NCBI GenBank assembly: GCA_049290615.1 | Contig: JBATNZ010000172.1 | Coordinates: forward strand, 18,548 to 50,547 | Length of the DNA stretch: 32,000 nt | Source: Candidatus Contendobacter sp. | Lineage (GTDB): Bacteria > Pseudomonadota > Gammaproteobacteria > Competibacterales > Competibacteraceae | Direction of reading: 5' to 3' | Part shown: positions 1 to 16,662 of the stretch, piece after piece | How positions within the stretch are numbered: position 1 is the stretch's first letter | Layout: each line of letters opens with the position of its first letter | Position numbers and translations under genes: made by a program | Notes under the pieces: generated by a model | Told to the model about the DNA's origin: nothing | What the model saw: only the letters and a program-made list of their open reading frames with translations | Database searches by the model: none

Positions 1-2
1 TG

Positions 3-935
3 TTCTGGGCCGCCGGGATGCGGCCGGAAGATCGCTATGTTCACGCCCTCAATTTCACCCTGTTCGTCGGCGGACCGGACGTGATCGGCGCGCAGAATCT
101 GGGCGCGCTGTGCCTCTGGGCGGGGGCCATTCCTTCCGACCGCTTGCTGTTTATCCTCAAGGAATTCCAGCCGACCGTGATTTGGACCACGCCGTCCTAC
201 GCCTGGGCTCTTGGCGAAACCGCTAAACAGCAGGGTATTGATCCAGCCAGGGATCTGGCCATCAACCGGATCATCGTCGCCGGCGAACCGGGCGGCTCCA
301 TCGACGCGACCCGGCAGGCAATTGAAAGCCTGTGGCAAGCTCAGGTTTTCGACTTTTACGGCATCTCCGACATTTTCGGGGCCTGCGCCGGCATGTGCCG
401 CGAGCGAAACGGTTTGCACCTTGCGGAAGACCACATTCTGGTGGAAATGATCGATCCGAAGACTCTGGAACCGGTGGCGGACGGGGAACGCGGCGAACTG
501 GTGCTGACCACTTTGCGCAAAACCGCCCGCCCCATGATTCGTTTCCGCACCGGCGACATCGGGACGGTGAATCGGGAACCCTGCGCCTGCGGCCGAACCC
601 ACGCGCGGATTGCCATCACCGGCCGACTGGACGACATGTTCATCGTTTCCGGGGTCAACGTGTTTCCCAGCGATGTCGAATATGTGATCAGGAAGGTGGA
701 ACACCTGACGGGCGAATATCGGATCACGGTGTTCACCGAGAATTATACGACCCGCTATCAAGTCGAGGTGGAGAGAAATCAAAACAGTAACGCCAGTCAT
801 TCTGAGTTAGCGGAAGAAGTCTCCCACCAACTCAAAACCCGCTTGGGAGTAAAGCCGAAAGAGGTCTTGGTGCTGGAACCGGGCGAGTTGCCAAGAGCGA
901 CCCATAAAGCCAAGCGGCTGATTGAGTTACGGTAA
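3..935 (+). CDS. PaaK / coenzyme F390 synthetase-family adenylate-forming ligase; 5' end lies outside the window
   Basis: Reading frame is open from the window edge. Translated motifs are typical of the phenylacetate-CoA ligase family: TTPSYAWAL, VAGEPGG, DFYGISD, GLHLAEDH, GELVLTTL, RFRTGDIG, CACGRTH, GRLDDMFIVSGVNVFP. Confidence 0.8.
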   Translation, partial: FWAAGMRPEDRYVHALNFTLFVGGPDVIGAQNLGALCLWAGAIPSDRLLFILKEFQPTVIWTTPSYAWALGETAKQQGIDPARDLAINRIIVAGEPGGSIDATRQAIESLWQAQVFDFYGISDIFGACAGMCRERNGLHLAEDHILVEMIDPKTLEPVADGERGELVLTTLRKTARPMIRFRTGDIGTVNREPCACGRTHARIAITGRLDDMFIVSGVNVFPSDVEYVIRKVEHLTGEYRITVFTENYTTRYQVEVERNQNSNASHSELAEEVSHQLKTRLGVKPKEVLVLEPGELPRATHKAKRLIELR

Positions 936-1004
936 AGCCGACGGAAATACTCTGACTCAAATATGGCTACGAATCCATGGCTTGAAAAGACCGGGAGAAA
1001 GTGA

Positions 1005-2252
1005 ATGTCGACCATCGAAAGTGGCAGGGAATTGACGCTGGACGATGTTGTGGAAAAGTACCCCGAGGTTCCAAGGCTGATCGCCGTTAAGATTGATGTG
1101 CAAAGACGCGGGGTCCATTATACCGACCACGCCTTGTCCAGGCTGGATAAGGAATTACATCAGCTTAGGGGCGCTGCCTTGTTCGGTTCCAGGGACGCAA
1201 AACTCACGCCTTTGCCGGAGTCTTTAATATTGCGGGATGGCACGACGGTTCTGACCGATCCGACTCCTATCGAACAAAATCCTTATCTGGTTGATTTTAT
1301 GGACGGCAAACTGGTTATTACCGATCAGGGAGCCGTTATCGAAGAGGTGGAGTATTGGCCAAAGCCTGATTTCTATGGCAAGAAAACTGCTTCGGGTAAG
1401 CCGATGGAGTTCATCGTTACCGCAAGGCCGCAGCGGTTGCAGGTCATGCCATCCAGCTATTGCCACTTCTGGACCAACGATCATGGTTGCAAGTACTGTG
1501 ACATCGTGAATCATCTGAAACACCAGAAATCAGGGCTTGGCGTGCCGGCAAAACTGCATCCTCAAGAGGTCGGTGAGGTTATACAGGAGGCGCTGAAACA
1601 GCCCGGAAGGTTCTCAAGTATTTGCCTGACCGCGGGTTCGGATACCAGAGGCGCCGAACCCTTTGATGAAGAAGTTGAATACTATGTCGAGCTTCTACAG
1701 GTCATCGGTGAGAACTTTAAAACCAGAAAATTCCCCAGCCAGCTCATTGCAACGGCATTTAATGAGAAGCAGCTTGAAAAGCTCTATCGTGAAACTGGAC
1801 TGATGGGTTATACTGCGGATATTGAAGTATTGAATGAAGATCTATTTAACTGGATATGTCCCGGCAAGGCGGAATGGGTCGGCTATCAGGAGTGGAAAAA
1901 TAGCTTGATAAAAGCCGTGGATATCTTTGGGCGCGGCAATGTGAATACTGGCATTGTCGCCGGGGTCGAATTGGCAAAACCCCACGGCTTTTCCAACGAA
2001 AATGAGGCGTTGCAAGCAACGCTGGAAGAGGCCGAAGACCTTGCGGCCAACGGTGTTTCAACCATCTTCATGGTCTGGATTCCAAGACCACAGGCTTATT
2101 TTCATGACCAGAAAAATGCTTCGCTTGAGTATTATGTCAGCTTGGCGAAAAATCTACATGAATTGAGAAAAAAATATTCCCTGAATATTGATTTCGATGA
2201 TTACCGAAGATGCGGAAACCATCCTGATGGCGATTTGACACGAATTCTGTAA
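1005..2252 (+). CDS. Putative Fe-S / radical-SAM-like enzyme with non-canonical CX8CX2C triad; family not recognised
   Basis: 415-aa ORF with GGGAGA about 6 nt upstream of the ATG. There is a single clustered Cys triad, C153-x8-C162-x2-C165 (YCHFWTNDHGCKYCD, nt 1461-1499), after an N-terminal domain of about 150 aa. The gene is 69 nt downstream of the ligase gene. The functional call is tentative. Confidence 0.55.
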   Translation: MSTIESGRELTLDDVVEKYPEVPRLIAVKIDVQRRGVHYTDHALSRLDKELHQLRGAALFGSRDAKLTPLPESLILRDGTTVLTDPTPIEQNPYLVDFMDGKLVITDQGAVIEEVEYWPKPDFYGKKTASGKPMEFIVTARPQRLQVMPSSYCHFWTNDHGCKYCDIVNHLKHQKSGLGVPAKLHPQEVGEVIQEALKQPGRFSSICLTAGSDTRGAEPFDEEVEYYVELLQVIGENFKTRKFPSQLIATAFNEKQLEKLYRETGLMGYTADIEVLNEDLFNWICPGKAEWVGYQEWKNSLIKAVDIFGRGNVNTGIVAGVELAKPHGFSNENEALQATLEEAEDLAANGVSTIFMVWIPRPQAYFHDQKNASLEYYVSLAKNLHELRKKYSLNIDFDDYRRCGNHPDGDLTRIL

Positions 2253-2275
2253 AAAAACAACAGGATGAATCACAA

Positions 2276-2743
2276 ATGACTTTTGAACTGCATCAGGAAC
2301 TCATAGACCTGATTAATGACTATGGTACTATAAAGGTATTAGCTACGGTGGATGAAAAAGGGCAGCCTCACTCGGTTGTGAAACAGTTCATGCATGTTCT
2401 GGAAAATGGCAATTTCGTTTATCTTGAACTCTTGGAGTCTTCAAGGAGTTACAAGAACTTTACTAGAAGTCTTTGGTACAACCAGAGGGTCTCCATAACG
2501 GTTGTGGGAGGCAAAGGTGAACACTGGCAAATTAAGGGAAAACCTGAAAAAATCATTATCAGCGGACCCGTTTTCGAACGATACTATAAATACGCAAGAA
2601 AGAGGCTTGGAGATGTTGATTTGGCCGCTGTTTGTATTGTTGAACCGGAAGAGCTTGTTAATGAATCATTTTATTACTGCTTTGAACAGCAGGAGAATCA
2701 GCAACCGATATTCAAGCATCTGGATCGTCTTGTAAAAAATTAA
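2276..2743 (+). CDS. Pyridoxamine-5'-phosphate-oxidase-like (FMN/deazaflavin split-barrel) protein
   Basis: 155-aa ORF with an N-terminal pattern typical of the PNPOx-like family (IKVLATVDEKGQPHSV ... FVYLELLESSRSYKNF ... RVSITVVG). It starts 23 nt after the upstream stop codon. Confidence 0.55.
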   Translation: MTFELHQELIDLINDYGTIKVLATVDEKGQPHSVVKQFMHVLENGNFVYLELLESSRSYKNFTRSLWYNQRVSITVVGGKGEHWQIKGKPEKIIISGPVFERYYKYARKRLGDVDLAAVCIVEPEELVNESFYYCFEQQENQQPIFKHLDRLVKN

Positions 2744-2784
2744 ATCCATCACTATCTGCTTAATTTGTCGGATAAATTCGTTTT

Positions 2785-3312
2785 ATGAACGAAAGTGGCA
2801 AGGGTTTTTTATTCGTACCAGCCGGGAAAATGGACATTCCATTGGCATTGAATTTCAGAAGAATCTTGTTCGATGAAATGGGAGTGCCTGACAATTCATT
2901 AATCGATAACTGTTACGATATTCTTTTCAAGTTGTACCAGGAAGAATTTGAGGAGGGAAGGATACAGCACTTCATTGCTTACAACGGAGAACATGAGCCT
3001 GTCGCCATCGCTGGCGCATTACTAAAAACTGATTTTCCCTACTATCTTTTCAAGCCTGGCTACTATGGCTGGATTATCGATGTATACACCGTTCCAAAAT
3101 ACAGAGGCAGGAAGCTTGCCAGCCAGCTTCTGGAATTAACCCAGCAATGGCTGGTCGCCAAGGGAGTGCAGGAAGCAAAACTGATTGCGGCGGGAAGCGC
3201 CGCAAGGCGGCTTTATGAGCGGTTGGGATACCGGGCGACCTGGGAGATGAGTGTTAATTTGTCTGGCAACAAAACATATAACGAGTTTATCGATTTGAAA
3301 AAAGAACCATGA
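2785..3312 (+). CDS. GNAT-family N-acetyltransferase
   Basis: 175-aa ORF with an acetyl-CoA-binding region (DVYTVPKYRGRKLASQLLELTQQWL) and the C-terminal RLYERLGY motif characteristic of GNAT proteins. Confidence 0.7.
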   Translation: MNESGKGFLFVPAGKMDIPLALNFRRILFDEMGVPDNSLIDNCYDILFKLYQEEFEEGRIQHFIAYNGEHEPVAIAGALLKTDFPYYLFKPGYYGWIIDVYTVPKYRGRKLASQLLELTQQWLVAKGVQEAKLIAAGSAARRLYERLGYRATWEMSVNLSGNKTYNEFIDLKKEP

Positions 3313-3461
3313 TCCACCTTTTTCAGGGTTTCATCGAATCCATAAACGGAGAGAGTAACGATGGAAGTCATGGTGTGGTAGTGATGCACTGTGGTCAGGA
3401 CTATATCAGATGGAAGATTTATCACGGCTACATCTGACTTTGCTGATTTGAAAGGTTTGGA

Positions 3462-4985
3462 ATGCGCTACGGATTCGTCATTGATCAAAACCGCTGCATC
3501 GGCTGTCATGCCTGCACTGTTGCTTGTAAAGCAGAACATAATATCGCCGTCGGTGTGAATCGAACATGGGTCAAGTATATTGAAAAAGGCCGTTATCCAA
3601 ACACGCGCCGTCACTTTGCCGTCCTGCGCTGCAATCACTGCGACAACGCTCCTTGCATCGAAATCTGTCCAACAGTAGCTCTATTTCGGAGACCGGACGG
3701 TATCGTCGACTTCGACCATGAGCGCTGCATCGGCTGCAAATCGTGCATGCAGGCTTGCCCCTACGACGCGCTTTACATTGATCCGGATAGAAACACCGCG
3801 GCAAAGTGCAATTTCGACGCTTCGCGCGTGGAGATGGGCTACAAGCCCGCCTGCGAGGTCGTCTGCCCGACGCAAGCGATACTGTCCGGCGACCTCGACG
3901 CTCCGGCGAGCGAGATCAGCAAGCGGATTGCAATGGAGAAAGTCAGCGTTCGAAAGCCGGAAAAGGGCACCAGGCCAAAGCTTTTTTACGTCGGTGTGGA
4001 CGGAGATCTGCTCCAGCCCGCGATGATGGAGCCTCAATCAGCGCACTTTTGGGCGGAAAAGCAGCCGGGTGAAGATCGTTATGCCCTGAATCAAGGGAAC
4101 GCGGACCGGCCAATTCCAGGAAGTGGACGAGAGGTCTACGATGTACCGCACGCGACGCCATGGAAAAAAAAGATCGCGATCTATCTTTGGGCCAAGTCCA
4201 TCTCCGCAGGAGTGTTGTTGATTTCTGCCTTACTGCTCCACATCGGCTTCGAGCAGGACATGCGATTACTGTGCGTCGTGAACCCTGTCGTAGCGCTCGT
4301 ATTTTTAGGGATCACCTTATTTTTGCTCGTCTTCGATCTCAAGAAACCGGGGCGGTTTTATTTTCTTCTCACTCGCCCTAACTGGAGATCTTGGCTAGTT
4401 CGAGGAGGCTATCTTCTTTTGATTTATGGAATGTTGGCTGCGGCGTGGCTCGGACAAGGGCTGACCGAAGGATCGGTCAAACCCTTTTTGTTTTTGCCGA
4501 CCGCAATCTTCGCGATTGCATCGACTTGCTACTCGGCTTTTCTCTTCGCTCAGGCGAAAGGCCATGATTTCTGGCGAAGCCCATTGTTGTTCTGGCAGCT
4601 CCTGATCCAGGCCGTCACTGCGGGGGCAGCGATGTTGATCCTGCTGAGTACGCTGTTTGACCTCAGCGTGCCGTTGTTTTTCTGGCTTCGTGATCTGCTC
4701 TTGACCTCTCTGTGTCTGAGCCGCGCGTTGCTATTGAGCGAACTTTTCGTGGACCACGGTGGGGAGGAAATCAAACGTGCGACGGCACTGCTCACCAAAG
4801 GGGCTTTGCGAGGTCAATTTTGGACTGTCGTCATTGGGCTTGGCTGCATTGCGCCATTGATCCTGATTCTTTGGCCCGAGAGCCCTTGGTTGCTCTATAG
4901 CGTCGCCAGCGTTTTGGTTCTACTCGGCCTATGGATGTATGAAGATCTCTGGATCAAGGCAGGCCAATCCGTGCCGCTAAGCTAA
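3462..4985 (+). CDS. Fusion protein: four-cluster ferredoxin (PsrB/NrfC/SoeB-like) domain + NrfD/PsrC-type integral membrane quinone-interacting domain
   Basis: Residues 1-140 carry CIGCHACTVAC, CNHCDNAPCIEICP, CIGCKSCMQACP and CNFD..(11)..CEVVCP. There is no signal or Tat sequence, since the first Cys is residue 12. Residues ~230-507 are strongly hydrophobic (about 8 helices) and include the NrfD-like signature DLKKPGRFYFLLTRPNWRSWLVRGG. Confidence 0.85.
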   Translation: MRYGFVIDQNRCIGCHACTVACKAEHNIAVGVNRTWVKYIEKGRYPNTRRHFAVLRCNHCDNAPCIEICPTVALFRRPDGIVDFDHERCIGCKSCMQACPYDALYIDPDRNTAAKCNFDASRVEMGYKPACEVVCPTQAILSGDLDAPASEISKRIAMEKVSVRKPEKGTRPKLFYVGVDGDLLQPAMMEPQSAHFWAEKQPGEDRYALNQGNADRPIPGSGREVYDVPHATPWKKKIAIYLWAKSISAGVLLISALLLHIGFEQDMRLLCVVNPVVALVFLGITLFLLVFDLKKPGRFYFLLTRPNWRSWLVRGGYLLLIYGMLAAAWLGQGLTEGSVKPFLFLPTAIFAIASTCYSAFLFAQAKGHDFWRSPLLFWQLLIQAVTAGAAMLILLSTLFDLSVPLFFWLRDLLLTSLCLSRALLLSELFVDHGGEEIKRATALLTKGALRGQFWTVVIGLGCIAPLILILWPESPWLLYSVASVLVLLGLWMYEDLWIKAGQSVPLS

Positions 4986-4997
4986 GAAAGGAAAGAT

Positions 4998-7823
4998 ATG
5001 AGTGAAAGCCGGTTGCCTCATCATCCAGTTGCCGCAGAGCTTGATCCCCTCAGCAGCCTGGTCAGTTATCCACCTACGGAAAAGTGGGACGACTGGGTGG
5101 AGTACGATACGGCCCATTGGCCCAAGAAGGTTGAAAAGCGTTATCAGATCATTCCCACGATTTGTTTTAATTGCGAAGCGGCGTGTGGACTGATCAGTTT
5201 TGTGGATAAGGAAACATTGCGCATCCGTCGCTTCGAAGGCAATCCGGAACATCCGGGCAGTCGCGGTCGCAATTGCGCCAAGGGACCCGCGACACTGAAT
5301 CAAGTCACCGACCCCGAACGGATCCGTTACCCGCTGAAGCGTACTGGAAAAAGGGGAGAAGGCCACTGGGAGCGGGTCAGTTGGGACGAAGTTCTCGACG
5401 ACATTGCGGCATGCGTGCGACGGGCCCTTCAAGATGATCGGCGCAACGAGATCATGTATCACGTCGGGCGTCCGGGTCACGAGCTTCTCTATCATCAGAG
5501 AATTCTCCATGCCTGGGGGATTGACGGCCACAATAGCCACACCAATGTCTGCTCAGCCAGCGCCCGTGCAGGTTATGCGTTCTGGTCGGGCAGCGATCGA
5601 CCGTCGCCGGATCATGCCAACGCCCGCTTCATCTTGTTGCTGAGTTCGCATCTGGAAAGCGGCCACTATTTCAACCCGCATGCTCAACGCATCGTCGAGG
5701 CTAAAAACCAGGGGACGAAAATTTGCGTCATCGATACGCGCCTTTCCAATACCGCGTCCAAGGCCGATTACTGGCTGTCGTCATGGCCGGGAAGCGAAGC
5801 AGCGATCTTACTGGCCATGAGTAATATTCTCTTGCAAGAGGATCTCTTCGACCGTCAATTTGTCCGGAGGTGGGTCAACTGGGAAGAATATCTGCGCGAA
5901 GAGCACTCCGATGAGCCGCAAATCTTCCAATCGTTCATTTCGTTATTGAAACGAAACTACGCGCAGTACACGCCGGAATTTGCCGCCAAGGAAGCCGGCG
6001 TCGATCCGCGCGTCTTGGTCGAGGTCGCGCATGAAATAGCCAAGGCGGGGACGGCGTTTTCCAGCCATGTTTGGCGCAACGCCGCCGCGGGAAATCTCGG
6101 CGGCTGGCAAGTCGCGCGGGCGCTACAGTTTTTAGCCGTGCTTGTCGGTGCGGTCGGAACTCCCGGCGGCACCGCGCCCAACGCGGCAAATAAATTCATC
6201 CCTGCTCCACCGCTGATGCCGCCACCGTCCAAGGTGTGGAACGAGATGCTGTTGCCGAAGGAATATCCCCTGGCATTCTTCGAGATGAGTTTTCTGTTGC
6301 CGCACTTTATCAAAGAAGGACGAGGCAAGCTCGCCATGTATTTCACCCGGACTTACAACCCGGTCTGGACTAATCCAGACGGCATGAGCTGGATCGAAAT
6401 GCTCACGGACGAGAGCAAGGTCGAGCGTCACGCTTGCCTCACGCCCACGTGGAGCGAGACCGCCTGGTTTGCCGATTATGTTTTGCCGATGGGACACGCC
6501 TCCGAGCGGCATGACTTGATGAGCCAGGAGACTCATGCGGCGCGCTGGATCGGTTTTCGCCAGCCCGTACTCAGAGTTGCGTTGGAGAAACAGGGGAGGG
6601 AATTTAACTTCACCTACGAGGCGCATCGTGAAGCTGGCATCGGCGAAGTATGGGAAGAAGATGAATTCTGGATTGAATTGTCGTGGCGCGTCGATCCTGA
6701 CGGCTCGCTGGGCATCCGAAAATACTTCGAATCGCCCTATGAACCTGGCAAAAAGATGACGGTGGAGGATTATTATCGCTGGATTTTCGAAAATAGCGTA
6801 CCGGGTCTTCCCGCAACGGCGATGAAAAAAGGATTAGCGCCATTAGAGTATATGCGCAAATACGGCGCCTTTCTGATCGAGGACAATGTTTATCATGTCC
6901 ACGAAACTGGGCTCAAAGCGGATGATTTGAACGACGCAACCACAGATCCAGTGACCCATCTCATTGCGAAAAACGGCGCTACTCTAGGGGTCGAGGTCGA
7001 TGGCCAAGCTTGCACCGGCTTTCCCACGCCATCGCGGAAGCTCGAGTTTTACTCGAAGACGCTGAAGGACTGGAAATGGCCGGAATACGCGATTCCCGGT
7101 TACATTAAAAGTCACGTTCACCCGGAGCAAATCGATTTCGATGCCGGCGAGATGCTGCTGCTTCCGACATTCCGTCTACCGACGTTAATCCACACCCGTT
7201 CCGGCAACGCAAAATGGTTGTACGAAATCTCCCATAGAAATCCGCTTTGGATTAATACCAAGGATGCGCAACATCTTGGCGTGAAAACAGGAGACCTTCT
7301 AAAAGTCCAGACGGAGATCGGTTACTTCGTCGATAAAGTGTGGGTTACGGAAGGGATCAAGCCCGGCGTCGTAGCCTGCTCGCACCATCTCGGCCGGTGG
7401 CGGCTTCAAGAAGATTTTGGCGGCGAACGGTGGTCCACCGCTCTCGTTGATATAAAACAAGTCGGCGAGGGGAGATGGATGATGCGTCAGGTCCACGGCA
7501 TTAAACCTTTCAAGAGCGATGATTCCGATTCCGAGAGGATTTTCTGGGAAGATCCCGGCGTGCATCAGAACCTCACTTTCCCAGTGCAACCCGATTACAT
7601 CAGCGGCCAGCACTGCTGGCATCAGAAGGTGCGAGCGACCAAGCCGGGCCCCGACGATAAGTACGGCGATATCTTTGTGGACACCAACAAATCCCACGAA
7701 GTCTACAAGCGCTGGCTCACTATGACGCGTCCGGCGCCGGGACCGGATAATCTTCGCCGGCCACTGTGGCTGCCGCGATCATATAAGCCTGCTCCCGAGG
7801 CGTATCATTTGCAGGAGAAATAG
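4998..7823 (+). CDS. Molybdopterin (Mo/W-bisPGD, DMSO-reductase superfamily) oxidoreductase catalytic subunit, no export signal
   Basis: 941-aa ORF with AAGGAAAG upstream as a ribosome-binding site. It has an N-terminal FeS0 motif CFNCEAACGL...GRNCAKG, a probable Mo-ligand region HNSHTNVCSASARAG, and C-terminal molybdopterin-binding-domain motifs (VKTGDLLKV, GVVACSHHLGRW, HQNLTFPVQPDYISGQ). No RR twin-arginine motif occurs in the first ~55 residues. It starts 12 nt after the FeS-NrfD gene. Confidence 0.9.
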   Translation: MSESRLPHHPVAAELDPLSSLVSYPPTEKWDDWVEYDTAHWPKKVEKRYQIIPTICFNCEAACGLISFVDKETLRIRRFEGNPEHPGSRGRNCAKGPATLNQVTDPERIRYPLKRTGKRGEGHWERVSWDEVLDDIAACVRRALQDDRRNEIMYHVGRPGHELLYHQRILHAWGIDGHNSHTNVCSASARAGYAFWSGSDRPSPDHANARFILLLSSHLESGHYFNPHAQRIVEAKNQGTKICVIDTRLSNTASKADYWLSSWPGSEAAILLAMSNILLQEDLFDRQFVRRWVNWEEYLREEHSDEPQIFQSFISLLKRNYAQYTPEFAAKEAGVDPRVLVEVAHEIAKAGTAFSSHVWRNAAAGNLGGWQVARALQFLAVLVGAVGTPGGTAPNAANKFIPAPPLMPPPSKVWNEMLLPKEYPLAFFEMSFLLPHFIKEGRGKLAMYFTRTYNPVWTNPDGMSWIEMLTDESKVERHACLTPTWSETAWFADYVLPMGHASERHDLMSQETHAARWIGFRQPVLRVALEKQGREFNFTYEAHREAGIGEVWEEDEFWIELSWRVDPDGSLGIRKYFESPYEPGKKMTVEDYYRWIFENSVPGLPATAMKKGLAPLEYMRKYGAFLIEDNVYHVHETGLKADDLNDATTDPVTHLIAKNGATLGVEVDGQACTGFPTPSRKLEFYSKTLKDWKWPEYAIPGYIKSHVHPEQIDFDAGEMLLLPTFRLPTLIHTRSGNAKWLYEISHRNPLWINTKDAQHLGVKTGDLLKVQTEIGYFVDKVWVTEGIKPGVVACSHHLGRWRLQEDFGGERWSTALVDIKQVGEGRWMMRQVHGIKPFKSDDSDSERIFWEDPGVHQNLTFPVQPDYISGQHCWHQKVRATKPGPDDKYGDIFVDTNKSHEVYKRWLTMTRPAPGPDNLRRPLWLPRSYKPAPEAYHLQEK

Positions 7824-7964
7824 ACCTTTGTCAGATATTAACCAGATTTAGGGGTAATTTATAATTTTTTTTCACAAACAAAACGTTTTTTATTCTTTTT
7901 AATTTTGAAAAAGCCCGTTTAGGCTATCAACAATCTTTATATTCCACCTAGACGGGAGTCTCCC
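7824..7964 (+). promoter_or_regulatory. AT-rich promoter/operator region upstream of tauA
   Basis: 141-bp spacer of very low GC between GC-richer genes. It contains T/A runs and the motif TTTATTCTTTTTAAT (7889-7903), which recurs upstream of metQ. No -10/-35 assignment was attempted. Confidence 0.35.
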
Positions 7965-8981
7965 ATGAAGCAAGCCCTGAAAATCGGGTTGCGGACCCTG
8001 ATCGCCGCGCCGTTGCTGGCTGGGTTAGCCCTGAGCGCCCAGGCCGCCGAGAAAGTCACCATCGCCTACCAGACGACGGTTGAACCGTCCAAGGTGGCCC
8101 AAGCCGATGGCGCTTATGAGAAGGCCACCGGCTGGAGCATCGACTGGCGCAAGTTCGACACCGGCGCGGAGGTGATCGCCGCCGTGGCGTCCGGCGACGT
8201 ACAAATCGGTTATGTCGGCTCCAGCCCGCTGGCCGCCGCCGCCTCGCACCAGTTGCCGATTGAAACCTTCTTCATCGCGGTCCAGATCGGGGCATCGGAA
8301 GCGCTGGTGGTGCGCGACAAAGCCGGCATCGTCAAACCGCAAGATCTGGTGGGCAAAAAAATCGCCGTGCCTTTCGTCTCCACCACCCACTACAGCCTGC
8401 TGGCGGCGCTCAAGCACTGGGGGATCAATCCCAAGGACGTGCAAATCCTGAATCTGCGCCCGCCGGAAATCTCGGCGGCCTGGGAACGTGGCGACATCGA
8501 CGCCGCCTACGTGTGGGACCCGGCGCTCGGCAAACTCAAGGCGTCGGGCAAGGTACTGACCGATTCGGCGCAAGTGGCGCAATGGGGCGCGCCGACCTTC
8601 GACGCCTGGATCGTGCGCCGCGATTTCGCCGAAAAACATCCGAAATTTGTCCAGGAGTTCGCGCGGGTGACGGCGGAAGCTTATGCCGCGTACCGCGCCA
8701 ACCCCAACGCCTGGGGGGTCAAGTCGCCGCAGGCCGCCAAGATCGCCAAGCTGACCGGAGCCAATCTGGACGAAATTCCGGAGCTACTGGCCGGCAGCAC
8801 CTTCCCGCTGGCCAAGGAACAAGTCGGCGCGGCATTGTTGGGCGGCGGCACCGTCAAGGCGATTGCCGATACCGCCGCTTTCCTCAAGGAGCAAGGCAAG
8901 GTGGAAAGCGTGCTCGGCGATTACAGCGGCTACGTCAATCCCCGGTTCGTCAAGGCCGCCCAGACCCAGGCCAAACTGTAA
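7965..8981 (+). CDS. tauA: Taurine ABC transporter periplasmic binding protein
   Basis: Signal peptide (ALSAQA/AEK) and long colinear similarity to E. coli TauA as I remember it (VAQAD, DWRKFD.GA, SGDVQIG..GSSPLA.AAS, AVPF.STTHYSLLAALKHWGI, GDID.AYVW.PA, GKVLTDS.QV.QWGAPT.D.W.VR.DFAEKHP). Confidence 0.95.
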   Translation: MKQALKIGLRTLIAAPLLAGLALSAQAAEKVTIAYQTTVEPSKVAQADGAYEKATGWSIDWRKFDTGAEVIAAVASGDVQIGYVGSSPLAAAASHQLPIETFFIAVQIGASEALVVRDKAGIVKPQDLVGKKIAVPFVSTTHYSLLAALKHWGINPKDVQILNLRPPEISAAWERGDIDAAYVWDPALGKLKASGKVLTDSAQVAQWGAPTFDAWIVRRDFAEKHPKFVQEFARVTAEAYAAYRANPNAWGVKSPQAAKIAKLTGANLDEIPELLAGSTFPLAKEQVGAALLGGGTVKAIADTAAFLKEQGKVESVLGDYSGYVNPRFVKAAQTQAKL

Positions 8982-9005
8982 CCGAACGGCGGTGGGGAAA
9001 TCGTC

Positions 9006-9803
9006 ATGGCGGAATTGCGCGTCGAGAGAGCCGCCGCCGTCTATTCGGGGCGAAATGGGCCGGTCACGGTGTTCGAGAATCTGTCGCTGACCGTGGGCGC
9101 CGGGCGATTCATCGTGGCTCTGGGCGCGTCCGGTTGCGGCAAGACCACGCTGTTGAACCTGATGGCCGGGTTTCTGCGCCCCAACGCCGGGCGGATCGCC
9201 CTGAACGAGCGCGAGGTGCAGGGGCCGGGGGCGGAGCGCGGCGTGGTGTTCCAGCATGACGCCCTGTTCCCTTGGCTCAACGTGCTGGATAACGTGGCGT
9301 TCAGCCTGCGGTTGCGCGGAACTCCGGCGCGAGAACGCCAGGAACGCGCCCGCGCCGCGCTGGCGCTGGTCGGCCTGGCCGGCTTCGACCGCCATCACGT
9401 CTGGGAATTGTCGGGCGGGATGCGGCAACGAGTTGGGTTGGCGCGGGCGTTGACCGCCGATCCGCAAGTGCTGTTGCTGGACGAACCCCTCGGCGCGCTC
9501 GACGCCCTGACCCGCGAACAGATGCAGGAACTGTTGTTGACCGTGTGGGGGCAGACCGGCAAGACGCTGTTCATGATCACTCACGGCATTGAAGAGGCGC
9601 TGTTGCTGGCGACCGATTTAATCATTTTGTCGCCGCGCCCGGCCCGCATCGCCGAAACGCTGACGCTGGATTTTGGCCGCCGCTATCTGGCCGGAGAAGC
9701 AGCGCGGCAGCTCAAGGCCGACCCCGCCTTCGTGGCCCTGCGGGAGCGGGTCACCCGCACCTTGTTCGCCTACAACACCCAGGAAGAATTCGCCGATGTC
9801 TGA
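9006..9803 (+). CDS. tauB: Taurine ABC transporter ATP-binding protein
   Basis: Walker [29 protein letters not shown], signature [15 protein letters not shown] and Walker [14 protein letters not shown]. The sequence is colinear with E. coli TauB, including the C-terminal [13 protein letters not shown]. Confidence 0.93.
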
Positions 9804-10686
9804 GTTCGACGCCGAAGTGTTAGTTTTCCCGGCGGTGGAACTGCCTGGAGAAGTCGATGCGCTGACCCTCCCGGCGGCAGCGATTCCGCAGCACCCTCGA
9901 CCCCTGCCGTGGCGGCGCTGGCTGGCGCAGCCGCGCCTGCTGTCGCTGGCGACCGTGGTGGCGTTGTTGGCCCTCTGGTGGCTGGTCACCGCCCTGCAAC
10001 TCGTGCCGCCGCTGTTTCTGCCTTCCCCCCAGGCCGTGCTCGGCAAGCTGTATCGAGTCGCGACCGACGGCTACATGGATGCCACGCTTTGGCAACATCT
10101 GAGCGCGAGCCTGGCGCGCGTCGCCGTCGCCTTGCTGGCCGCCAGCCTGACCGCAATCCCCCTGGGCATCCTGCTGGGCCGCAGTCGCCGCGCCCGCGCC
10201 ATTGGCGATCCGATCATCGAGTTCTACCGCCCGTTACCGCCGTTGGCCTACCTGCCGCTGATCGTCATCTGGTTCGGCATCGGCGAGCTATCGAAAATCT
10301 TGCTGATTTATCTGGCGATTTTTGCCCCAGTCGTCATTTCCACCATGGCGGGCGTCAACGCCGTCGCCCCCGACCGCCTGCGGGCGGCGCAAGCCCTGGG
10401 CGCCAACCCGCGCCAATTGCTCTGGTATGTGGTGCTGCCCAGCGCGCTGCCCGACATCCTGACCGGTATTCGCATTGGCTTGGGCACCGGTTGGTCCACC
10501 CTGGTGGCCGCCGAACTCATCGCCGCCACTCAGGGACTGGGGTTCATGGTGCAGTCGGCGGCCAACTTCCTGGTCACCGACGTGGTGGTGCTGGGCATTC
10601 TGGTGATCGGCGCGGTGGCGGTGGGACTGGAATTGCTGATTCGCGCCCTGCAACGGCGGCTGACCCCTTGGCAGGGCCAGGTTTGA
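9796..10686 (+). CDS. tauC: Taurine ABC transporter permease
   Basis: ATG at 9796 overlaps the tauB stop (9801-9803). The polypeptide is hydrophobic with a binding-protein-dependent permease core ([33 protein letters not shown]). The longer ORF-track start at 9673 lies inside tauB and is rejected. Confidence 0.9.
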
Positions 10687-10748
10687 TGCATCGCGGACAA
10701 ACACAAACAACCACCGATAAAACTCTCTTGCCTCCAGAGGAAACCACC

Positions 10749-11336
10749 ATGTTCGTTCTCGCGATAGCCGGCAGCCCACGAGAAGATTCGCGGTCGCGCC
10801 GCCTGCTCGATTTCGCCGCGCGCGAACTCGACGTTCGGGGAATCGCCGTGCGCCTGATCAGCGTTCGCGATCTGCCGGCCGCCGACCTCCTACATGCCCG
10901 CTTCGACAGCCCTGCCCTGCGCGAGGCGGCGGCGCTGGTGGAGCGCGCCGCCGGCGTCCTCGTCGCCACCCCGGTTTACCAAGCGGCTTATAGCGGCATC
11001 CTCAAGGCATTTCTCGACTTGCTGCCCCAACGCGCGCTGAGCGGCAAAGTCGTTTTACCGATCGTCACCGGTGGCAGCGCCGCTCACATGCTGGCTCTGG
11101 ATTACAGCTTGAAGCCGGTGCTCGCCGCTCTCGGCGCTCACCCTGTGCTGGCCGGGTTGTACGCTCTCGATTCCCAAATCGCCTGGTCACCCGAGCAGGG
11201 CTTGTGGCTTGCTCCGGAGATCGTCGACCGTCTCCAGGATGGATTGAAGCACTTGCGACACAGTCTCGGCTGGTTGGCGCCAGCATCAACCTCTATCCAC
11301 AGCCCCGCCGAAATCGAATGTCTGGTGGCGGGTTGA
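10749..11336 (+). CDS. ssuE: NAD(P)H-dependent FMN reductase
   Basis: The last 195 codons of the 9909-11336 ORF, beginning MFVLAIAGSPREDSRSRRLL. They include VATPVYQAAYSGILKAFLDLLP and LPIVTGGSAAHMLALDYSLKPVL, typical of SsuE. The gene sits immediately 5' of ssuADCB. Confidence 0.85.
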   Translation: MFVLAIAGSPREDSRSRRLLDFAARELDVRGIAVRLISVRDLPAADLLHARFDSPALREAAALVERAAGVLVATPVYQAAYSGILKAFLDLLPQRALSGKVVLPIVTGGSAAHMLALDYSLKPVLAALGAHPVLAGLYALDSQIAWSPEQGLWLAPEIVDRLQDGLKHLRHSLGWLAPASTSIHSPAEIECLVAG

Positions 11337-11388
11337 TCTATTTATCTCATTTTTCAATAAGATATGATACAACCAAGGAGTACTTTGC

Positions 11389-12360
11389 ATGATTAAGAAC
11401 CCCGAACGTCGTTTCCTCGCCCTGTTTGTTGGTTGGGCATTCCTCGCCCTGGCGTTGGCACTGCCGGCCGGCGCGCAACCGGCCGACAGCGCTCAGCAGT
11501 TGCGCATCGGCTTTCAGAAATCCGCCAGCCTGCTGACGTTGTTGAAATCGCAGGGCACCTTGGAAAAGCGCCTCGCCCCGCTGAAGGTGGAGGTCAAATG
11601 GATCGAGTTTCCCGCCGGTCCGCAACTGCTGGAAGGTCTGAACGTCGGTTCGATCGACTTCGGTTACGTGGGCGAAGCGCCGCCGATCTTCGCGCAGGCG
11701 GCCGGCGCGAACTTCGTCTACGTCGGCTACGAGTCTCCGGCGCCCGCCGCCGAGGCAATCCTGGTACCGAAAGATTCGCCGATCCGATCAGTAGCCGACC
11801 TGAAGGGCAAAAAGGTCGCGCTGAACAAAGGCTCCAACGTCCATTACCTGCTGGTCAAACTGCTGGAAAAGCACGGCCTCAAGTACGGCGACATCGAACC
11901 GGTCTTCCTGCCTCCGGCCGACGCCCGCGCCGCCTTCGAACGCGGTGCGGTGAACGCTTGGGTGATCTGGGACCCGTTCCAGGCCGCCGCCGAAAAGCAG
12001 ATCGGCGCCCGGTTGCTGGCCGACGGCAAAGGGGTGGTCAACAACCACGCCTTTTTCCTGGCGGCGCGCGACTACGCCGAACGCCACCCGGACGTGGTCA
12101 AGCTGCTGTTCGAGGTGCTGCCGGCGCAGGGGCAGTGGATTATCAAGAACCACAAGGACGCCGCCGTAGCGCTGGCCCCGCTGCAGGGACTGGACCCGGC
12201 GGTCATCGAACTCAGCCTGCAACGCTACAGCCACGACGTCCATCCGATCTCGGACGCGGTGCTGACCGAGCAGCAGAAGATTGCCGACGTCTTCTTCGAT
12301 CTCAAGCTGATTCCAAAGCCGATCAACGTCAAGGACGCGGTCCTGAAATCCAAGCCTTGA
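11389..12360 (+). CDS. ssuA: Aliphatic sulfonate ABC transporter periplasmic binding protein
   Basis: AAGGAG ribosome-binding site and a signal peptide (ALPAGA/QPA). SsuA-like motifs: LRIGFQKS, VKWIEFPAGPQLLEGLNVGSIDFGYVGEAPP, GKKVALNKGSNVHYLL. Confidence 0.9.
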   Translation: MIKNPERRFLALFVGWAFLALALALPAGAQPADSAQQLRIGFQKSASLLTLLKSQGTLEKRLAPLKVEVKWIEFPAGPQLLEGLNVGSIDFGYVGEAPPIFAQAAGANFVYVGYESPAPAAEAILVPKDSPIRSVADLKGKKVALNKGSNVHYLLVKLLEKHGLKYGDIEPVFLPPADARAAFERGAVNAWVIWDPFQAAAEKQIGARLLADGKGVVNNHAFFLAARDYAERHPDVVKLLFEVLPAQGQWIIKNHKDAAVALAPLQGLDPAVIELSLQRYSHDVHPISDAVLTEQQKIADVFFDLKLIPKPINVKDAVLKSKP

Positions 12361-12372
12361 GAAGGATCACCC

Positions 12373-13515
12373 ATGCAAGTCTTCTGGTTTATCCCGACTC
12401 ACGGCGACAGCCGCTATCTCGGCACGACTCAGGGCGCGCGGGTCGCGAATCACGCCTATTTCAAACAGATCGCCCAAGCCGCCGATGCCCTGGGCTACGA
12501 CGGCGTGCTGATTCCCACCGGGCGGTCCTGCGAGGACCCCTGGGTAGTGGCCGCCAGCCTGATTCCGGTCACGGAACGGTTGCGCTTTCTGGTGGCCGTC
12601 CGACCGGGGCTGAGTTCGCCCAGTCTGGCGGCGCGGATGACCGCCACTTTCGACCGGCTTTCCAACGGACGGCTGTTGATCAACATCGTGACCGGCGGCG
12701 ACCCGGTGGAACTGGCCGGCGATGGCTTGTTCCTCAGCCACGACGAGCGCTACGAAGTCACGGACGAATTCCTGCGCGTCTGGCGCGGCGTGCTCGCCGG
12801 CGAAACCGTGGATTTCGAGGGCAAACATCTGCGCGCCCAAGGCGCTCAAGTGTTCTTTCCGCCCGTGCAGCAACCCTACCCGCCCTTGTATTTCGGCGGC
12901 TCCTCGCCCGCCGCCCACGAACTCGCCGCCGAACAACTGGATGTCTACCTCACCTGGGGTGAGCCGCCGGCGGCGGTGGCGGAAAAGATCGCGGACGTTC
13001 GGGCGCGCGCCGCCCGATACGGACGCCGTTTGCGCTTCGGTATCCGCCTGCACGTGATCGTGCGGGAAACCAACGCCGAAGCCTGGGCCGCGGCGGATCG
13101 ACTGATCCGGCATCTCGACAACGACACCATCGCCCGCGCGCAGCAGGCGTTCGGGCGGATGGATTCGGAGGGGCAACGGCGCATGGCCGCCCTGCACAAC
13201 GGCCGGCGCGACCAGTTGGAAATCAGTCCGAATCTGTGGGCCGGCGTCGGTCTGGTGCGCGGCGGGGCGGGTACCGCCCTGGTCGGCGATCCCGAAACGG
13301 TGGTGGCACGGATACAGGAATACGCGGACCTCGGGATCGAGACCTTCATCTTCTCCGGTTACCCGCATCTGGAAGAGACCTACCGCGTGGCCGAACTGCT
13401 GTTCCCGTTGCTGCCCGACAGACAGCACGCCCAACCACTACCGGGACAGCATCTGACCGGGCCGTTCGGCGAAGTGGTCGCCAATCATTACCTGCCCAAG
13501 GTGGCGCAGGGCTAA
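12373..13515 (+). CDS. ssuD: FMNH2-dependent alkanesulfonate monooxygenase
   Basis: The N-terminus [18 protein letters not shown]...[47 protein letters not shown] is near-colinear with E. coli SsuD. Confidence 0.95.
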
Positions 13516-13539
13516 ATGACGCGAGCAGAAGGAGCGCGC

Positions 13540-14325
13540 ATGACGCTATCAATCCGCCATCTCCCATGGCGCGGGTTGCTGCCCTGGGCCTTGCCGATCT
13601 TCATTCTGGTGGCGTGGCAGTTGTCGGCGCAATGGGGCTGGCTATCGACCCGCATCCTGCCGGAGCCGTTGGCGGTGGCCAAGGCAGCGGTCGCCCTGAC
13701 CTTATCCGGCGAACTATTCACTCACGTGCGCATCAGCGCCGGGCGCGCGCTGGCTGGGTTCGCCCTCGGCGGCGGACTGGGTTTGTTGTTCGGGTTGCTG
13801 AATGGTTCGTTCAGAAACGCGGAAACGCTGTTCGATTCGACCATTCAGATGATCCGCAACATCCCGCCGCTGGCGCTGATTCCCCTGGTGATCCTGTGGT
13901 TCGGGATCGAAGAGAGCGCCAAGCTGTTCCTGGTTTCGCTCGGCGTCTTTTTCCCCATCTACATCAACACCTTTCACGGCATCCGCACGGTCGATCCGGG
14001 CTTGATCGAAATGGGCCGGGCCTATGGGCTGTCGGGCTGGCGCCTGTACCGCGAGGTGATTCTGCCGGGCGCGTTGCCGTCGATTCTGGTGGGGGTGCGG
14101 TTTTCGCTCGGCTTCATGTGGGTGATTTTAATCGTCGCGGAAACGATCTCGGCCCAGGCGGGCATCGGCTACATGACGATGAACGCCCGGGAATTTTTGC
14201 AAACCGACGTGGTGTTGCTCGGCATTTTGCTTTACGCCCTGCTCGGCAAGCTGGCGGACGGGGTCGCTAAGGGATCGGAGCGCTACTGGCTGCGCTGGCA
14301 CCCCAGCTATCAGCCGATCCGATGA
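13540..14325 (+). CDS. ssuC: Aliphatic sulfonate ABC transporter permease
   Basis: GAAGGAG lies 5 nt upstream of the ATG at 13540; the alternative ATG at 13516 abuts the ssuD stop. Permease core: [33 protein letters not shown]. Confidence 0.9.
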
Positions 14326-14377
14326 CCGGGAACGCCCGTTGCTCGAATCGGCATCCACTTCGAGGAAGAACGCCGCC

Positions 14378-15226
14378 ATGTACTTGAATCCGAACGAATG
14401 GGCCGCAACGCCGCCGGGCGCCGCCACGGAAAGGCCGCCGGGTGTCCGGTTGCAGGTGGAGGGGCTGACGAAAGGCTACGCCGGGCGTGGCGTGCTCGCC
14501 GGATTCGACCTTGCGGTGGATCGCGGAGAATTTACGGCCATCGTCGGCCGCAGTGGCTGCGGCAAGAGCACCCTGTTGCGGCTGGTCGCGGGTTTGGAGC
14601 GGCCGGAACACGGCACCGTTTGCTACGACGGTGTCCCGCAAAACGGTATCCCCCCGACCATGCGGCTCATGTTTCAGGACGCACGCCTGCTGCCGTGGCG
14701 GCGCGTGCTCGCCAACGTCGCGCTCGGCTTGCCCAAGACGGAGCATCCGCACGCACGGGCCGTCCTGGAGCAGGTGGGATTGGGCGAACGCGCCGCCGAT
14801 TGGCCCGCCGTCCTGTCCGGCGGGCAACGCCAGCGGGTGGCGCTGGCGCGCGCCCTGGTGCATGACCCCGGTTTGTTGCTGCTGGACGAACCGCTCGGCG
14901 CACTCGATGCGCTGACCCGCATCGAAATGCAGCAATTGCTCGAAAACCTGTGGCGGCAGCGCGGGTTTACCGCGCTGCTGGTCACTCACGACGTCGCCGA
15001 GGCGATTGCACTGGCCGACCGGGTAATTTTGATCGAACACGGACAAATTTCGCTGGATTTGCGCATCGATTTACCCCGACCCCGCGCTCGCGGCAGCGCC
15101 GTGTTTGCCGCCCTGGAAGAGCGGGTGTTGAACCGCGTGCTGCAACAACCCGACGTCGAGCCGGTCGGTCCCGTTACCGAACCGTCCGTATTGCAGGGTT
15201 TCAATGGGTTTCGCTGGGCCGTTTGA
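14378..15226 (+). CDS. ssuB: Aliphatic sulfonate ABC transporter ATP-binding protein
   Basis: Walker [18 protein letters not shown], signature [15 protein letters not shown] and Walker [15 protein letters not shown] chose the ATG at 14378 because GAGGAAG lies upstream; 14339 is also possible. Confidence 0.9.
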
Positions 15227-15627: not shown

Positions 15628-15777
15628 CATAAAAAAATTAAAATTTATTCTTTAATAACCATCAATCGTGTCAATTATAGTAGATGTCAGGGAGCGGCCA
15701 TCGGCCCCACACTTCACCGTGGCGTACTGATGGCAGGCTGCTGATTTTATTCATGACTTTTGAGAAGGTGAGTGATC

Positions 15778-16662
15778 ATGAGTTTGGGAAGAAAAACAGG
15801 TTTGCTTGCAGTCATCCTGGCGGCGCTCGTTCTGGTCAACGGCGGCGCATTTGCGGAAAACCAAAAACTGGTTTTCGGGGTTGCGCCGGGGCCTTACGGC
15901 GACTTGATTCGTTTCGCCATCAAGCCGTTTCTGGAGAAAAAAGGCTACACCATTGAAATCAAGGAATTCAGCGATTATGTTCAGCCCAATCTGGCGCTGA
16001 ATAACGGCGATCTGGACGCCAATCTGTTTCAGCATGTCCGTTATTTAAGAAAGTTCTCCGCCGACAAGGGTCTTAGTTTGACCGAGGTCATCACGATTCC
16101 GACTGCGGGGCTAGGCATCTATTCCCGAAAGATCGAGGCTAAAAATGCCGATGAGTTGAAAACCAAGCTGAAAAAGGGCGACACCATCACGCTGGCGAAT
16201 GATCCGACTAACCTGGCCAGAGCGTTGGCGTTGTTGCAAAAAAATGGACTGATCACGATCAAGGGGACGATTGATCAAACCAAATCTTCGGAAAAGGATA
16301 TCGACCAAAACCTCTATGGTCTGGTGATTCAGCCCATTGAAGCGGCGCAATTGCCACGCTCGCTAGACAGCGTAACGCTCTCGGTGGTGAATGGCAATTA
16401 CGCCATTGCCGCCGGCATTCCGCTGGCGTCGGCGATCATCAAGGAAGAACTGGTGGAGGATTTGAAGAATCTGGTTGCGGTCAGGACGGCGGATATTGAT
16501 AAGCCCTTCGTCAAGGACATCAAGGATGTCATTCAGTCGGAGGACTTCAAGAATGTTGTTGAAGACCCGAAGCATGTATTTAAGGATTTTCAGCGGCCCG
16601 CCTGGTATATCGAGAAGTGGACAAAACCTAACCAAAAGGTGTCGTCGGCAGGAAAGAACTGA
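15778..16662 (+). CDS. metQ: Methionine (NlpA/MetQ-family) ABC transporter substrate-binding protein
   Basis: GAGAAGG lies 9 nt upstream of the ATG at 15778. MetQ-family motifs: FGVAPGPYGDL, EIKEFSDYVQPNLALNNGDLDANLFQH, ANDPTNLARALALL, VVNGNYA. The signal peptide ends AFA/ENQ and has no lipobox Cys. Confidence 0.9.
   Translation: MSLGRKTGLLAVILAALVLVNGGAFAENQKLVFGVAPGPYGDLIRFAIKPFLEKKGYTIEIKEFSDYVQPNLALNNGDLDANLFQHVRYLRKFSADKGLSLTEVITIPTAGLGIYSRKIEAKNADELKTKLKKGDTITLANDPTNLARALALLQKNGLITIKGTIDQTKSSEKDIDQNLYGLVIQPIEAAQLPRSLDSVTLSVVNGNYAIAAGIPLASAIIKEELVEDLKNLVAVRTADIDKPFVKDIKDVIQSEDFKNVVEDPKHVFKDFQRPAWYIEKWTKPNQKVSSAGKN

Follow-up and report, generated by a model that had tools for sequence, protein, structure and literature searches.

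Among molybdoenzymes anchored to the membrane by an NrfD-like protein, SoeABC has been described from Allochromatium vinosum (Alvin_2491-2489) and Aquifex aeolicus (Dahl et al. 2013 and Boughanemi et al. 2020, as cited in PMC8076601). It combines a catalytic subunit with a molybdenum bis(pyranopterin guanine dinucleotide) (Mo-bisPGD) cofactor (A), a four-cluster ferredoxin (B) and an NrfD-like anchor (C) as three separate proteins in the gene order A-B-C, with A and B in the cytoplasm. PsrABC of Thermus thermophilus (PDB 2VPZ) and PhsABC also have three separate subunits in A-B-C order; they are exported by the twin-arginine translocation (Tat) pathway and are periplasmic. Both PsrC termini are on the P-side, while an inverted orientation has so far only been hypothesised for SoeC, which is reported only in Proteobacteria, a few Clostridia and Aquificae (PMC8076601). 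Here, we analyzed a stretch of 32,000 nucleotides (nt) from the wastewater bacterium Candidatus Contendobacter sp. (contig JBATNZ010000172.1, positions 18,548 to 50,547; hereafter, the window) carrying a two-gene operon, BC-A, in which B and C are fused into one protein. We find that BC-A encodes a membrane-bound, cytoplasm-facing molybdoenzyme and that the copy in the window was acquired horizontally; on balance, and with moderate confidence, we take the enzyme to be most likely a SoeABC-like sulfite:quinone oxidoreductase.

The original prediction, made from the letters of the window, had described a fusion protein of 507 amino acids (aa) followed 12 nt downstream by a 941-aa catalytic subunit in the order BC-A, and our analysis confirmed this architecture with its coordinates. 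The elements of the operon are as follows.

3462-4985, + strand: BC gene, 507 aa, an iron-sulfur electron-transfer domain, a linker and a predicted NrfD-type quinone-binding membrane domain
3462-4001, + strand: ferredoxin (PsrB/NrfC/TtrB-like) domain of BC, residues 1-180
3816-3818, + strand: codon of Asp119, in place of the second Cys of the fourth Cys group
4002-4157, + strand: linker between the iron-sulfur domain and the first transmembrane helix (TM1), residues 181-232
4158-4982, + strand: NrfD/PsrC-type domain, residues 233-507, 8 transmembrane helices
4986-4997, + strand: intergenic spacer GAAAGGAAAGAT, 12 nt, with a Shine-Dalgarno-like AAGGAA
4998-7823, + strand: A gene, 941-aa Mo-bisPGD catalytic subunit without a Tat signal
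4998-5147, + strand: N-terminal extension of A, ~50 residues, with the motif L.S[YF]PP.E.WDDW.EYD...WP.K where a Tat leader would be
5163-5285, + strand: FS0 [4Fe-4S] motif of A, C56-x2-C59-x3-C63 ... C93
5544-5573, + strand: Mo-ligand segment NVCSASARAG of A, with Cys185 at 5550-5552

In BC, Pfam recognizes Fer4_11 at residues 53-144 and NrfD (PF03916) at residues 232-501, the latter with 80.1 bits versus a gathering cutoff of 25.8. The N-terminal 180-200 residues match the NCBIfam models of TtrB (the top match of this domain), NrfC, DsrO and ArrB from profile position ~40 onward, that is, in the mature part of these proteins without their export leaders, and a PDB search matched the domain to PsrB (2vpw_B, E 5e-49). 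The four-cluster ferredoxin that had been predicted was borne out as to its fold and three intact Cys groups (C12/15/18/22, C57/60/65/69 and C89/92/95/99) and had to be corrected as to its full Cys set, because 15 of the 16 canonical cysteines are present and the fourth group reads C116/D119/C131/C135. Asp occupies residue 119 in all but one of the 120 closest cluster representatives, the exception having Tyr; in the alignment, the window protein and its closest clade share KCNFDASRVE where all other clades have KCN[FY]CAHR. This change would imply an Asp-ligated [4Fe-4S] or a [3Fe-4S] cluster at a position that we take, by NarH/DmsB numbering, to be a ligand of FS2.

The ~8-helix NrfD/PsrC-like domain of the prediction is supported by hydropathy, AlphaFold and Foldseek alike. 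Hydropathy gives eight helices (residues ~235-261, 264-292, 311-336, 341-365, 375-395, 403-429, 450-470 and 476-503), and the same eight are present in the AlphaFold model with a predicted local distance difference test score (pLDDT) of 85-95. This model is confident for the NrfD domain only, with pLDDT <50 in the linker and <40 in the iron-sulfur domain, which was not used. A profile search with the membrane domain was dominated by ferredoxins, and a single-sequence PDB search with this domain returned nothing relevant; the fold search decided instead, with ActC (of alternative complex III) and PsrC (2vpw_C, target TM-score 0.78) at its top. The signature DLKKPGRFYFLLTRPNWRSWLVRGG spans residues 292-316, and the invariant motifs of the domain are DL..P.RF (292-299), SWL..G (310-315), Y..FLF.Q (357-364) and a C-terminal AGQ.VPLS. 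The linker differs in length and sequence among phyla and ends in a conserved motif, YDV.H..PW. In Natrinema halophilum, BC, encoded at 6047-7870 of a plasmid record (L087), has 607 aa with ~100 extra, very acidic linker residues that include the Cys-rich stretch GGCACGGNCGCQ; flavobacterial and Calditrichota BC proteins have shorter linker insertions.

By its sequence, A belongs to the Mo-bisPGD (DMSO reductase) superfamily: Molybdop_Fe4S4 (PF04879, residues 51-103), Molybdopterin (PF00384, 108-511) and Molydop_binding (PF01568, 720-800) all score above the Pfam cutoffs, and the predicted FS0 motif and Cys-type ligand are in place, with Cys185 aligned to the Mo-ligand Cys column of Thermus PsrA (2vpw_A) and Shewanella ArrA (6cz7_A). 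PsrA matches A with E 1e-35 in the PDB search, and the best NCBIfam scores of A are 197 bits for dmsA_ynfE (cutoff 778) and 191 bits for PhsA (cutoff 694). No curated NCBIfam equivalog was reached by A (ArrA, 119 versus 1600 bits; TtrA, 91 versus 1750 bits) or by BC (TtrB, 176 versus 416 bits; NrfD, 37 versus 348 bits), and neither a SoeA model among the NCBIfam scan results nor a SoeABC structure among the PDB search results was present. BC and A share a reading frame with only a TAA stop and four codons between them (4983-5000), so that stop read-through would yield a single BC-A polypeptide; because the spacing differs at other loci, the shared frame is probably a coincidence. Scans for promoters and terminators around the operon gave nothing above chance.

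A survey of genomes showed that the fusion is not peculiar to this locus. Scanning one genome per species for relatives of BC returned at least 598 stretches, from which 80 loci were kept, and the BC-A family is thus present in at least 598 species genomes of more than ten phyla, including haloarchaea. The fusion is full-length in 598 of 600 candidate stretches and in all 360 listed cluster representatives and is therefore not a sequencing artefact; the listed fused proteins have 486-580 aa, all with both domains. The kept loci come from Binatia, 'Deltaproteobacteria', Acidobacteriota, Rokubacteria/Methylomirabilota, Chloroflexota, Bacteroidota, Planctomycetota, Actinomycetota and Calditrichota. 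Records of plasmids and chromids extend this range to Thermomicrobium roseum, Rhodococcus jostii RHA1 and several Natrinema and other haloarchaea, and protein searches contribute Nocardioides, Micromonospora, Dietzia, Streptomyces, KSB1, SAR324, Cyclobacteriaceae and Saprospiraceae. A directly follows BC in 58 of 65 loci, the DNA ending there or the open reading frame (ORF) not being called in the remainder, and ORF clustering found an A gene of ~945 aa on the strand of BC wherever downstream DNA exists, the order BC-A in every locus, and no third gene conserved across the family. Database names are generic ('4Fe-4S dicluster domain-containing protein', 'polysulfide reductase NrfD'), and our literature search found no text describing a B-C fusion. 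Thus, the fusion is the norm of a very large, widespread and uncharacterised family.

Within this family, A subunits are 57-88% identical across more than ten phyla, including Natrinema, while those of Sulfurovum mangrovi (42%) and Azoarcus sp. KH32C (34%) are the nearest outgroups in the tree and PhsA and DmsA are ~25% identical. For each of the three modules, PsrABC and PhsABC are the best match in structure and in sequence, and they share with the family the Cys ligand of Mo and the 8-helix anchor; apart from export, gene order and separate subunits, they differ in this low identity of A (~25%) and in an anchor topology that is opposite for PsrC (PMC8076601). TtrBCA and the unfused Azoarcus and Sulfurovum operons have the family's gene order of B, C and A; unlike the family, the Ttr and Azoarcus enzymes have Tat signals, TorD chaperones and separate B and C proteins (B-C-A-TorD in the Tat-dependent operon of Azoarcus), and all Ttr equivalog cutoffs were missed by a wide margin. 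On the Sulfurovum plasmid (L086, 4075-9166), B and C are apparently unfused, Tat-less and encoded in different frames that overlap by ~46 nt, and a frameshift in the record splits the A gene, which has no annotation; decay of the copy, an error in sequencing or a programmed event could each account for this. A tblastn search of plasmids with A returned family members, the two unfused cousins, DmsA, PhsA and stand-alone enzymes, with no Tat-less A-B-C locus among the matches. The membrane domain alone, searched against 1.84 billion representatives, matched 141 clusters at E <= 1e-30; apparent stand-alone C subunits among the 50%-identity representatives were rejected as such, those checked being mostly fragments or split calls of fused genes.

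Which side of the membrane the enzyme faces can be read from export signals and from the distribution of charges. The first Cys of BC is residue 12, and the 11 preceding residues leave no room for a signal peptide. The nearest in-frame stops lie 5 codons (BC) and 4 codons (A) before the starts with no alternative start between, making a hidden signal peptide impossible and bearing out the earlier claim that the Tat signal is missing. A twin-arginine motif with a hydrophobic stretch is found in none of 58 family A subunits, nor in A of the window; instead of a Tat leader, the 58 share the N-terminal motif L.S[YF]PP.E.WDDW.EYD. To follow topology, we summed Lys and Arg over the loops on the side of the N-terminus versus the loops on the other side. 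The seven fused proteins compared, from six phyla, have 18 versus 3 (window BC) and 12-17 versus 0-3 (Rhodococcus, Thermomicrobium, Natrinema, Lutibacter, Rokubacterium and Acidobacterium). By comparison, E. coli NrfD has 6 versus 13 and the Azoarcus anchor, whose partner A has a TRRTFLK Tat signal, 3 versus 10; the Sulfurovum anchor was left out because a false first helix was called. The positive-inside bias is thus the reverse of that of the classical topology, in which the N-terminus and the B-binding face are periplasmic. Together, the charge bias, the lack of a Tat motif and the lack of an upstream start strongly support a cytoplasmic location of the ferredoxin domain, as had been predicted, and of A, and an NrfD domain that is inverted relative to the classical family, including E. 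coli NrfD.

The converse, that the ferredoxin domain and A reach the periplasm by an unrecognised export route and the anchor is classical, would agree with the homology to periplasmic enzymes, and we found nothing else in its favor. It conflicts with the lack of a signal peptide and of any possible upstream start, with the Tat count of 0 in 58 relatives and with the strong and consistent positive-inside bias. A TorD-type chaperone, moreover, was detected in none of the 83 fused-family loci screened, whereas the loci of the unfused Azoarcus and Sulfurovum cousins, the Tat-type one included, have one. We therefore consider a periplasmic enzyme highly improbable. As a separate observation, an Mrp/NBP35 (ApbC-like) iron-sulfur carrier ATPase is encoded directly after A in Rhodococcus (L083), Natrinema (L087), Nocardioides (L100) and Streptomyces (L101).

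Support for sulfite as the substrate comes from the neighbors of other family members. Sulfur genes lie within 10 kb at 30 of 88 loci, and 19 of these 30 encode persulfide dioxygenase (PDO)-type proteins of the metallo-β-lactamase (MBL) fold, many of them fused to rhodanese. R. jostii RHA1 and Nocardioides have the order DsrE2-TusA-BC-A-Mrp/NBP35, with a SulP sulfate permease next in Nocardioides, and divergently upstream a PDO-like MBL-rhodanese, DUF202 genes and an ArsR regulator whose top specific match is BigR, a sulfite/persulfide sensor, at a score below the cutoff. In Streptomyces caeni and a Chloroflexia metagenome-assembled genome (MAG), an sHdr-like cluster with DsrE and TusA adjoins BC-A; Flavobacteriales and Bacteroidota have BC-A-SulP, and one further genome has BC-A-rhodanese-YeeE. 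TauE, YeeE and an FCSD-type flavoprotein are neighbors in Rokubacteria, a CsoR/CstR-family regulator is encoded directly upstream of BC-A in T. roseum, and genes for molybdenum-cofactor biosynthesis, assigned by reading cluster sequences with no profile search, adjoin the operon in Flavobacteriaceae. Sulfite is released in the cytoplasm by PDO as well as by sHdr, and its removal is usually ascribed to SoeABC (PMC9774590, PMC8551704). A cytoplasm-facing enzyme with a sulfate permease encoded downstream fits sulfite being oxidised to sulfate with a quinone as the acceptor. Because the cultured hosts of the family are aerobes, a dehydrogenase is favored over an anaerobic reductase.

In our model of the enzyme, A, with its Mo-bisPGD cofactor, Cys185 ligand and FS0 cluster, would oxidise a small substrate in the cytoplasm, and the electrons would run through the iron-sulfur chain that the N-terminal domain of BC provides to a quinone site in the 8-helix NrfD domain of the same protein. 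This domain sits upside-down in the membrane compared with classical NrfD/PsrC, its B-binding face turned inward. Because the ferredoxin domain lacks a signal peptide and is covalently joined to TM1, the fusion fixes both this orientation and a 1:1 stoichiometry and spares the enzyme Tat export. Our analysis shows the architecture, the orientation and the foreign origin of the copy in the window; the substrate, the direction in which electrons flow and the coupling to a quinone are inferred. The substrate would most likely be sulfite, oxidised to sulfate with a quinone as the acceptor, which is the SoeABC reaction, and in other hosts the enzyme may carry out the last step after the cytoplasmic sulfite producers PDO and sHdr. 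In this proposed role downstream of sulfite producers, in its set of Mo-bisPGD, ferredoxin (of the four-cluster fold) and NrfD-like modules, in A and B modules that are cytoplasmic and lack export signals (no Tat motif, no upstream start), and in an anchor inversion of the kind hypothesised for SoeC (PMC8076601), the family resembles SoeABC; it differs in having two genes in the order BC-A with B and C fused. 'Soe-like' is justified as a description of its working mode.

The same neighbors can be read differently. An enzyme of identical cytoplasm-facing architecture might act on another inorganic sulfur compound, such as thiosulfate, polysulfide, a protein persulfide delivered by TusA/DsrE, tetrathionate or a thiosulfonate, perhaps as a quinol-dependent reductase or detoxifier. 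Its closest solved or curated relatives, PsrA, ArrA, PhsA and TtrB, would suit such a role, as would A of the next Tat-bearing relative, Azoarcus, which scores best versus PhsA (342 bits), the TusA and DsrE2 genes immediately upstream in Actinobacteria, and the rhodanese and YeeE genes downstream in one genome. We consider this rather unlikely, because SulP lies directly downstream in two unrelated phyla and because the neighboring PDO and sHdr release sulfite (PMC9774590, PMC8551704). The hosts, moreover, are mainly aerobes, and a quinol-fed cytoplasmic reductase of sulfane sulfur has, to our knowledge, no precedent.

Several observations weigh against sulfite oxidation by BC-A. About two thirds of the 88 loci have no sulfur gene within 10 kb, and the window itself has no PDO, sHdr or SulP genes. 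The closest clade of the window is mostly flanked by genes for a thiamine pyrophosphate (TPP) enzyme, a CADD/heme-oxygenase-like (di-iron) protein and amidohydrolases, with no evident sulfur link. The nearest solved structures and NCBIfam models are those of reductases (ArrA, PsrA, PhsA and DmsA), and direction and substrate are not readable from sequence in this superfamily. The likeness to SoeABC is itself drawn from description. Finally, Calisto & Pereira 2021 label a possibly overlapping NrfD group 'formate:quinone oxidoreductase' (PMC8076601). The flanking TPP enzyme was tried as Xsc and rejected (142 bits versus a cutoff of 676), and four loci of the window's clade also have an MBL protein and a 200-aa protein downstream.

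Some of these observations would be explained if the substrate were not a sulfur compound but formate (as in the 'FqoABC' label), arsenite, selenite or an organic molecule, with the sulfur neighbors reflecting some clades only: the two thirds of loci without sulfur neighbors, the TPP-enzyme, CADD-like and amidohydrolase genes around the window's clade, and the spread of the tentative Fqo group over Actinobacteria, Chloroflexi and Deltaproteobacteria (PMC8076601). ArsR-family regulators at 5 loci point the same way, except that the top specific match of ArsR is BigR, below cutoff. However, the identity of A (57-88%) suggests a single function family-wide, and sulfur context recurs in Actinobacteria, Chloroflexi, Rokubacteria, Bacteroidota and part of Binatia. 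As for formate, the Mo ligand of A is a Cys in NVCSASARAG, whereas FdnG/FdhF-type formate dehydrogenases have Sec or Cys in a different motif, and the Fdh models of NCBIfam score below those of DmsA and PhsA. A non-sulfur substrate is thus unlikely.

The formate label belongs to the NrfD group typified by CT0494 of Chlorobaculum tepidum. Presumably, CT0494-CT0496 is the complex called PSRLC3 in papers on green sulfur bacteria. PSRLC3 is known from genomics only and has been called 'an alternative sulfite-oxidizing system' (PMC6338057), and for Prosthecochloris, '2 genes encoding PSRLC3' are reported (PMC5473276), which would agree with a BC fusion and an A gene. The CT0494 group occurs in Actinobacteria, Chlorobi, Crenarchaeota, Chloroflexi and Deltaproteobacteria and was only tentatively assigned as a formate:quinone oxidoreductase (PMC8076601); its FqoC phyla Actinobacteria, Chloroflexi and Deltaproteobacteria overlap with those of the fused family. 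Unlike the fused family, C. tepidum has its anchor CT0494 listed as a separate 8-helix protein, and neither the 360 listed cluster representatives nor the 80 genome loci include a Chlorobi sequence. By taxa and description, then, the fused family may overlap with PSRLC3, and should they be one family, this architecture would already have been observed, though not characterized.

Returning to sulfite:quinone oxidoreduction as the function that we favor, it is tempting to go one step further and to propose, tentatively and with clearly less confidence, that fused BC-A is a cytoplasmic sulfite:quinone oxidoreductase lineage distinct from SoeABC, that it is the sulfite-oxidising step of the sulfide:quinone oxidoreductase (SQR)-PDO and sHdr routes, so far unassigned, in aerobic heterotrophs of many phyla (Actinomycetota, Chloroflexota, Bacteroidota, Binatia, Acidobacteriota and haloarchaea), and that it provides direct sequence-level evidence for an inverted NrfD anchor. 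The fused family, unlike SoeC, occurs in Binatia, Acidobacteriota, Rokubacteria, Chloroflexota, Actinomycetota, Bacteroidota, Calditrichota and haloarchaea.

The operon in the window is foreign to its host. It is part of a low-GC (guanine plus cytosine) island, listed here with the four genes upstream of the operon.

1005-7900, no strand assigned: low-GC island, genes 40-55% GC, with host genes of 62-67% GC on its right
1-3312, + strand, first gene: PaaK/F390-synthetase-like ligase, truncated at the edge of the window, 59% GC
1-3312, + strand: 'variant radical SAM' protein (NF045502), 48% GC
1-3312, + strand: PNPOx-like protein, 40% GC
1-3312, + strand: GNAT acetyltransferase, 45% GC

The three upstream island genes thus have 48%, 40% and 45% GC, BC 54% and A 55%, versus 62-67% for tauAB and ssuEADCB. 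The 90%-identity clusters of the host's TauA and SsuD have 21-25 members with the NCBI label Candidatus Competibacteraceae, versus 3-6 members for the island genes. In five contigs with a TauA of the same >=90% cluster, cysPTWA-cbl lies upstream and tauC-tauD-tauB downstream, with no Mo operon, and A of the window nests among Binatia-type sequences at 84-88% identity. The low GC content, the absence from host relatives and this nesting mark the operon as foreign, and it was probably acquired recently and horizontally from a Binatia-type donor.

This origin bears on the argument, made in the original prediction, that sulfite-releasing tau and ssu genes next door point to the substrate. In that scenario, the enzyme would be coupled in this genome to the adjacent tauABC and ssuEADCB and would oxidise sulfite from taurine or alkanesulfonates; the operon is on the strand of tauA and 141 nt upstream of it, SsuD releases sulfite, and a TauA/NMT1-like binding protein (cluster 6) is encoded near BC-A in several Binatia-type loci. 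Yet the GC content changes from 40-55% in the island to 62-67% in tau/ssu, the host relatives have the tau locus without the island, the clusters of island genes are small compared with those of tauA and ssuD, and no above-chance terminator or promoter signal marks a shared transcript. The tau/ssu genes, moreover, serve the scavenging and assimilation of sulfur and need the released sulfite, which oxidation would waste. After a recent acquisition, the position beside tau/ssu says little about function, and we regard the adjacency as incidental and a coupling to tau/ssu as quite improbable. Sulfite thus stays the best candidate for the substrate on the strength of other family members' neighbors, and the tau/ssu part of the argument falls away.

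The radical SAM, PNPOx-like and GNAT genes were found at none of the 87 other loci searched, and the PaaK-like ligase had one match (L030). Because, this match apart, these four genes are not associated with BC-A elsewhere, we did not count them in the system, and they appear to form a small biosynthetic cassette of their own that is likewise foreign. On the other side of the operon (7965-15226), tauA-tauB-tauC is directly followed by ssuE-ssuA-ssuD-ssuC-ssuB, with no tauD in the window, while close relatives have tauA-tauC-tauD-tauB at the corresponding place; from this difference in gene order, the sulfonate locus has been rearranged in this strain. A second low-GC block (15772-18692, 50-57%), flanked by ssuB (66% GC) and an amino-acid permease (65% GC), carries genes for a MetQ/NlpA lipoprotein, a MetN-type ATPase and a MetI-type permease, and two Binatia-type loci (L005 and L006) have a gene for a similar ABC ATPase (cluster 28) a few genes downstream of BC-A. 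Finally, at 24168-25264 on the - strand, genes for a diheme cytochrome c (PF09626) and a cytochrome b561 (PF01292) are adjacent, a small redox pair of the membrane with no evident tie to the Mo operon.

Sulfite is a toxic product of the cytoplasmic oxidation of sulfur by PDO and sHdr, and the enzyme that removes it is largely unassigned outside Proteobacteria. If our model is true, a single annotation rule would fill this gap in the sulfur cycle for MAGs of Binatia, Acidobacteriota, Rokubacteria, Chloroflexota, Actinomycetota and Bacteroidota from soil, sediment and wastewater, in which the genes are today labelled 'polysulfide reductase'. The fusion is also a natural experiment: because it fixes the ferredoxin at TM1's cytoplasmic end, the inversion of NrfD that has been proposed for SoeC can be put to a direct test. 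The clade-specific change from Cys to Asp, in turn, gives a way into the tuning of the electron-transfer chain. Cultured hosts are available in Rhodococcus jostii RHA1, Nocardioides, Thermomicrobium roseum and Natrinema, and the hypothesis can thus be tested now.

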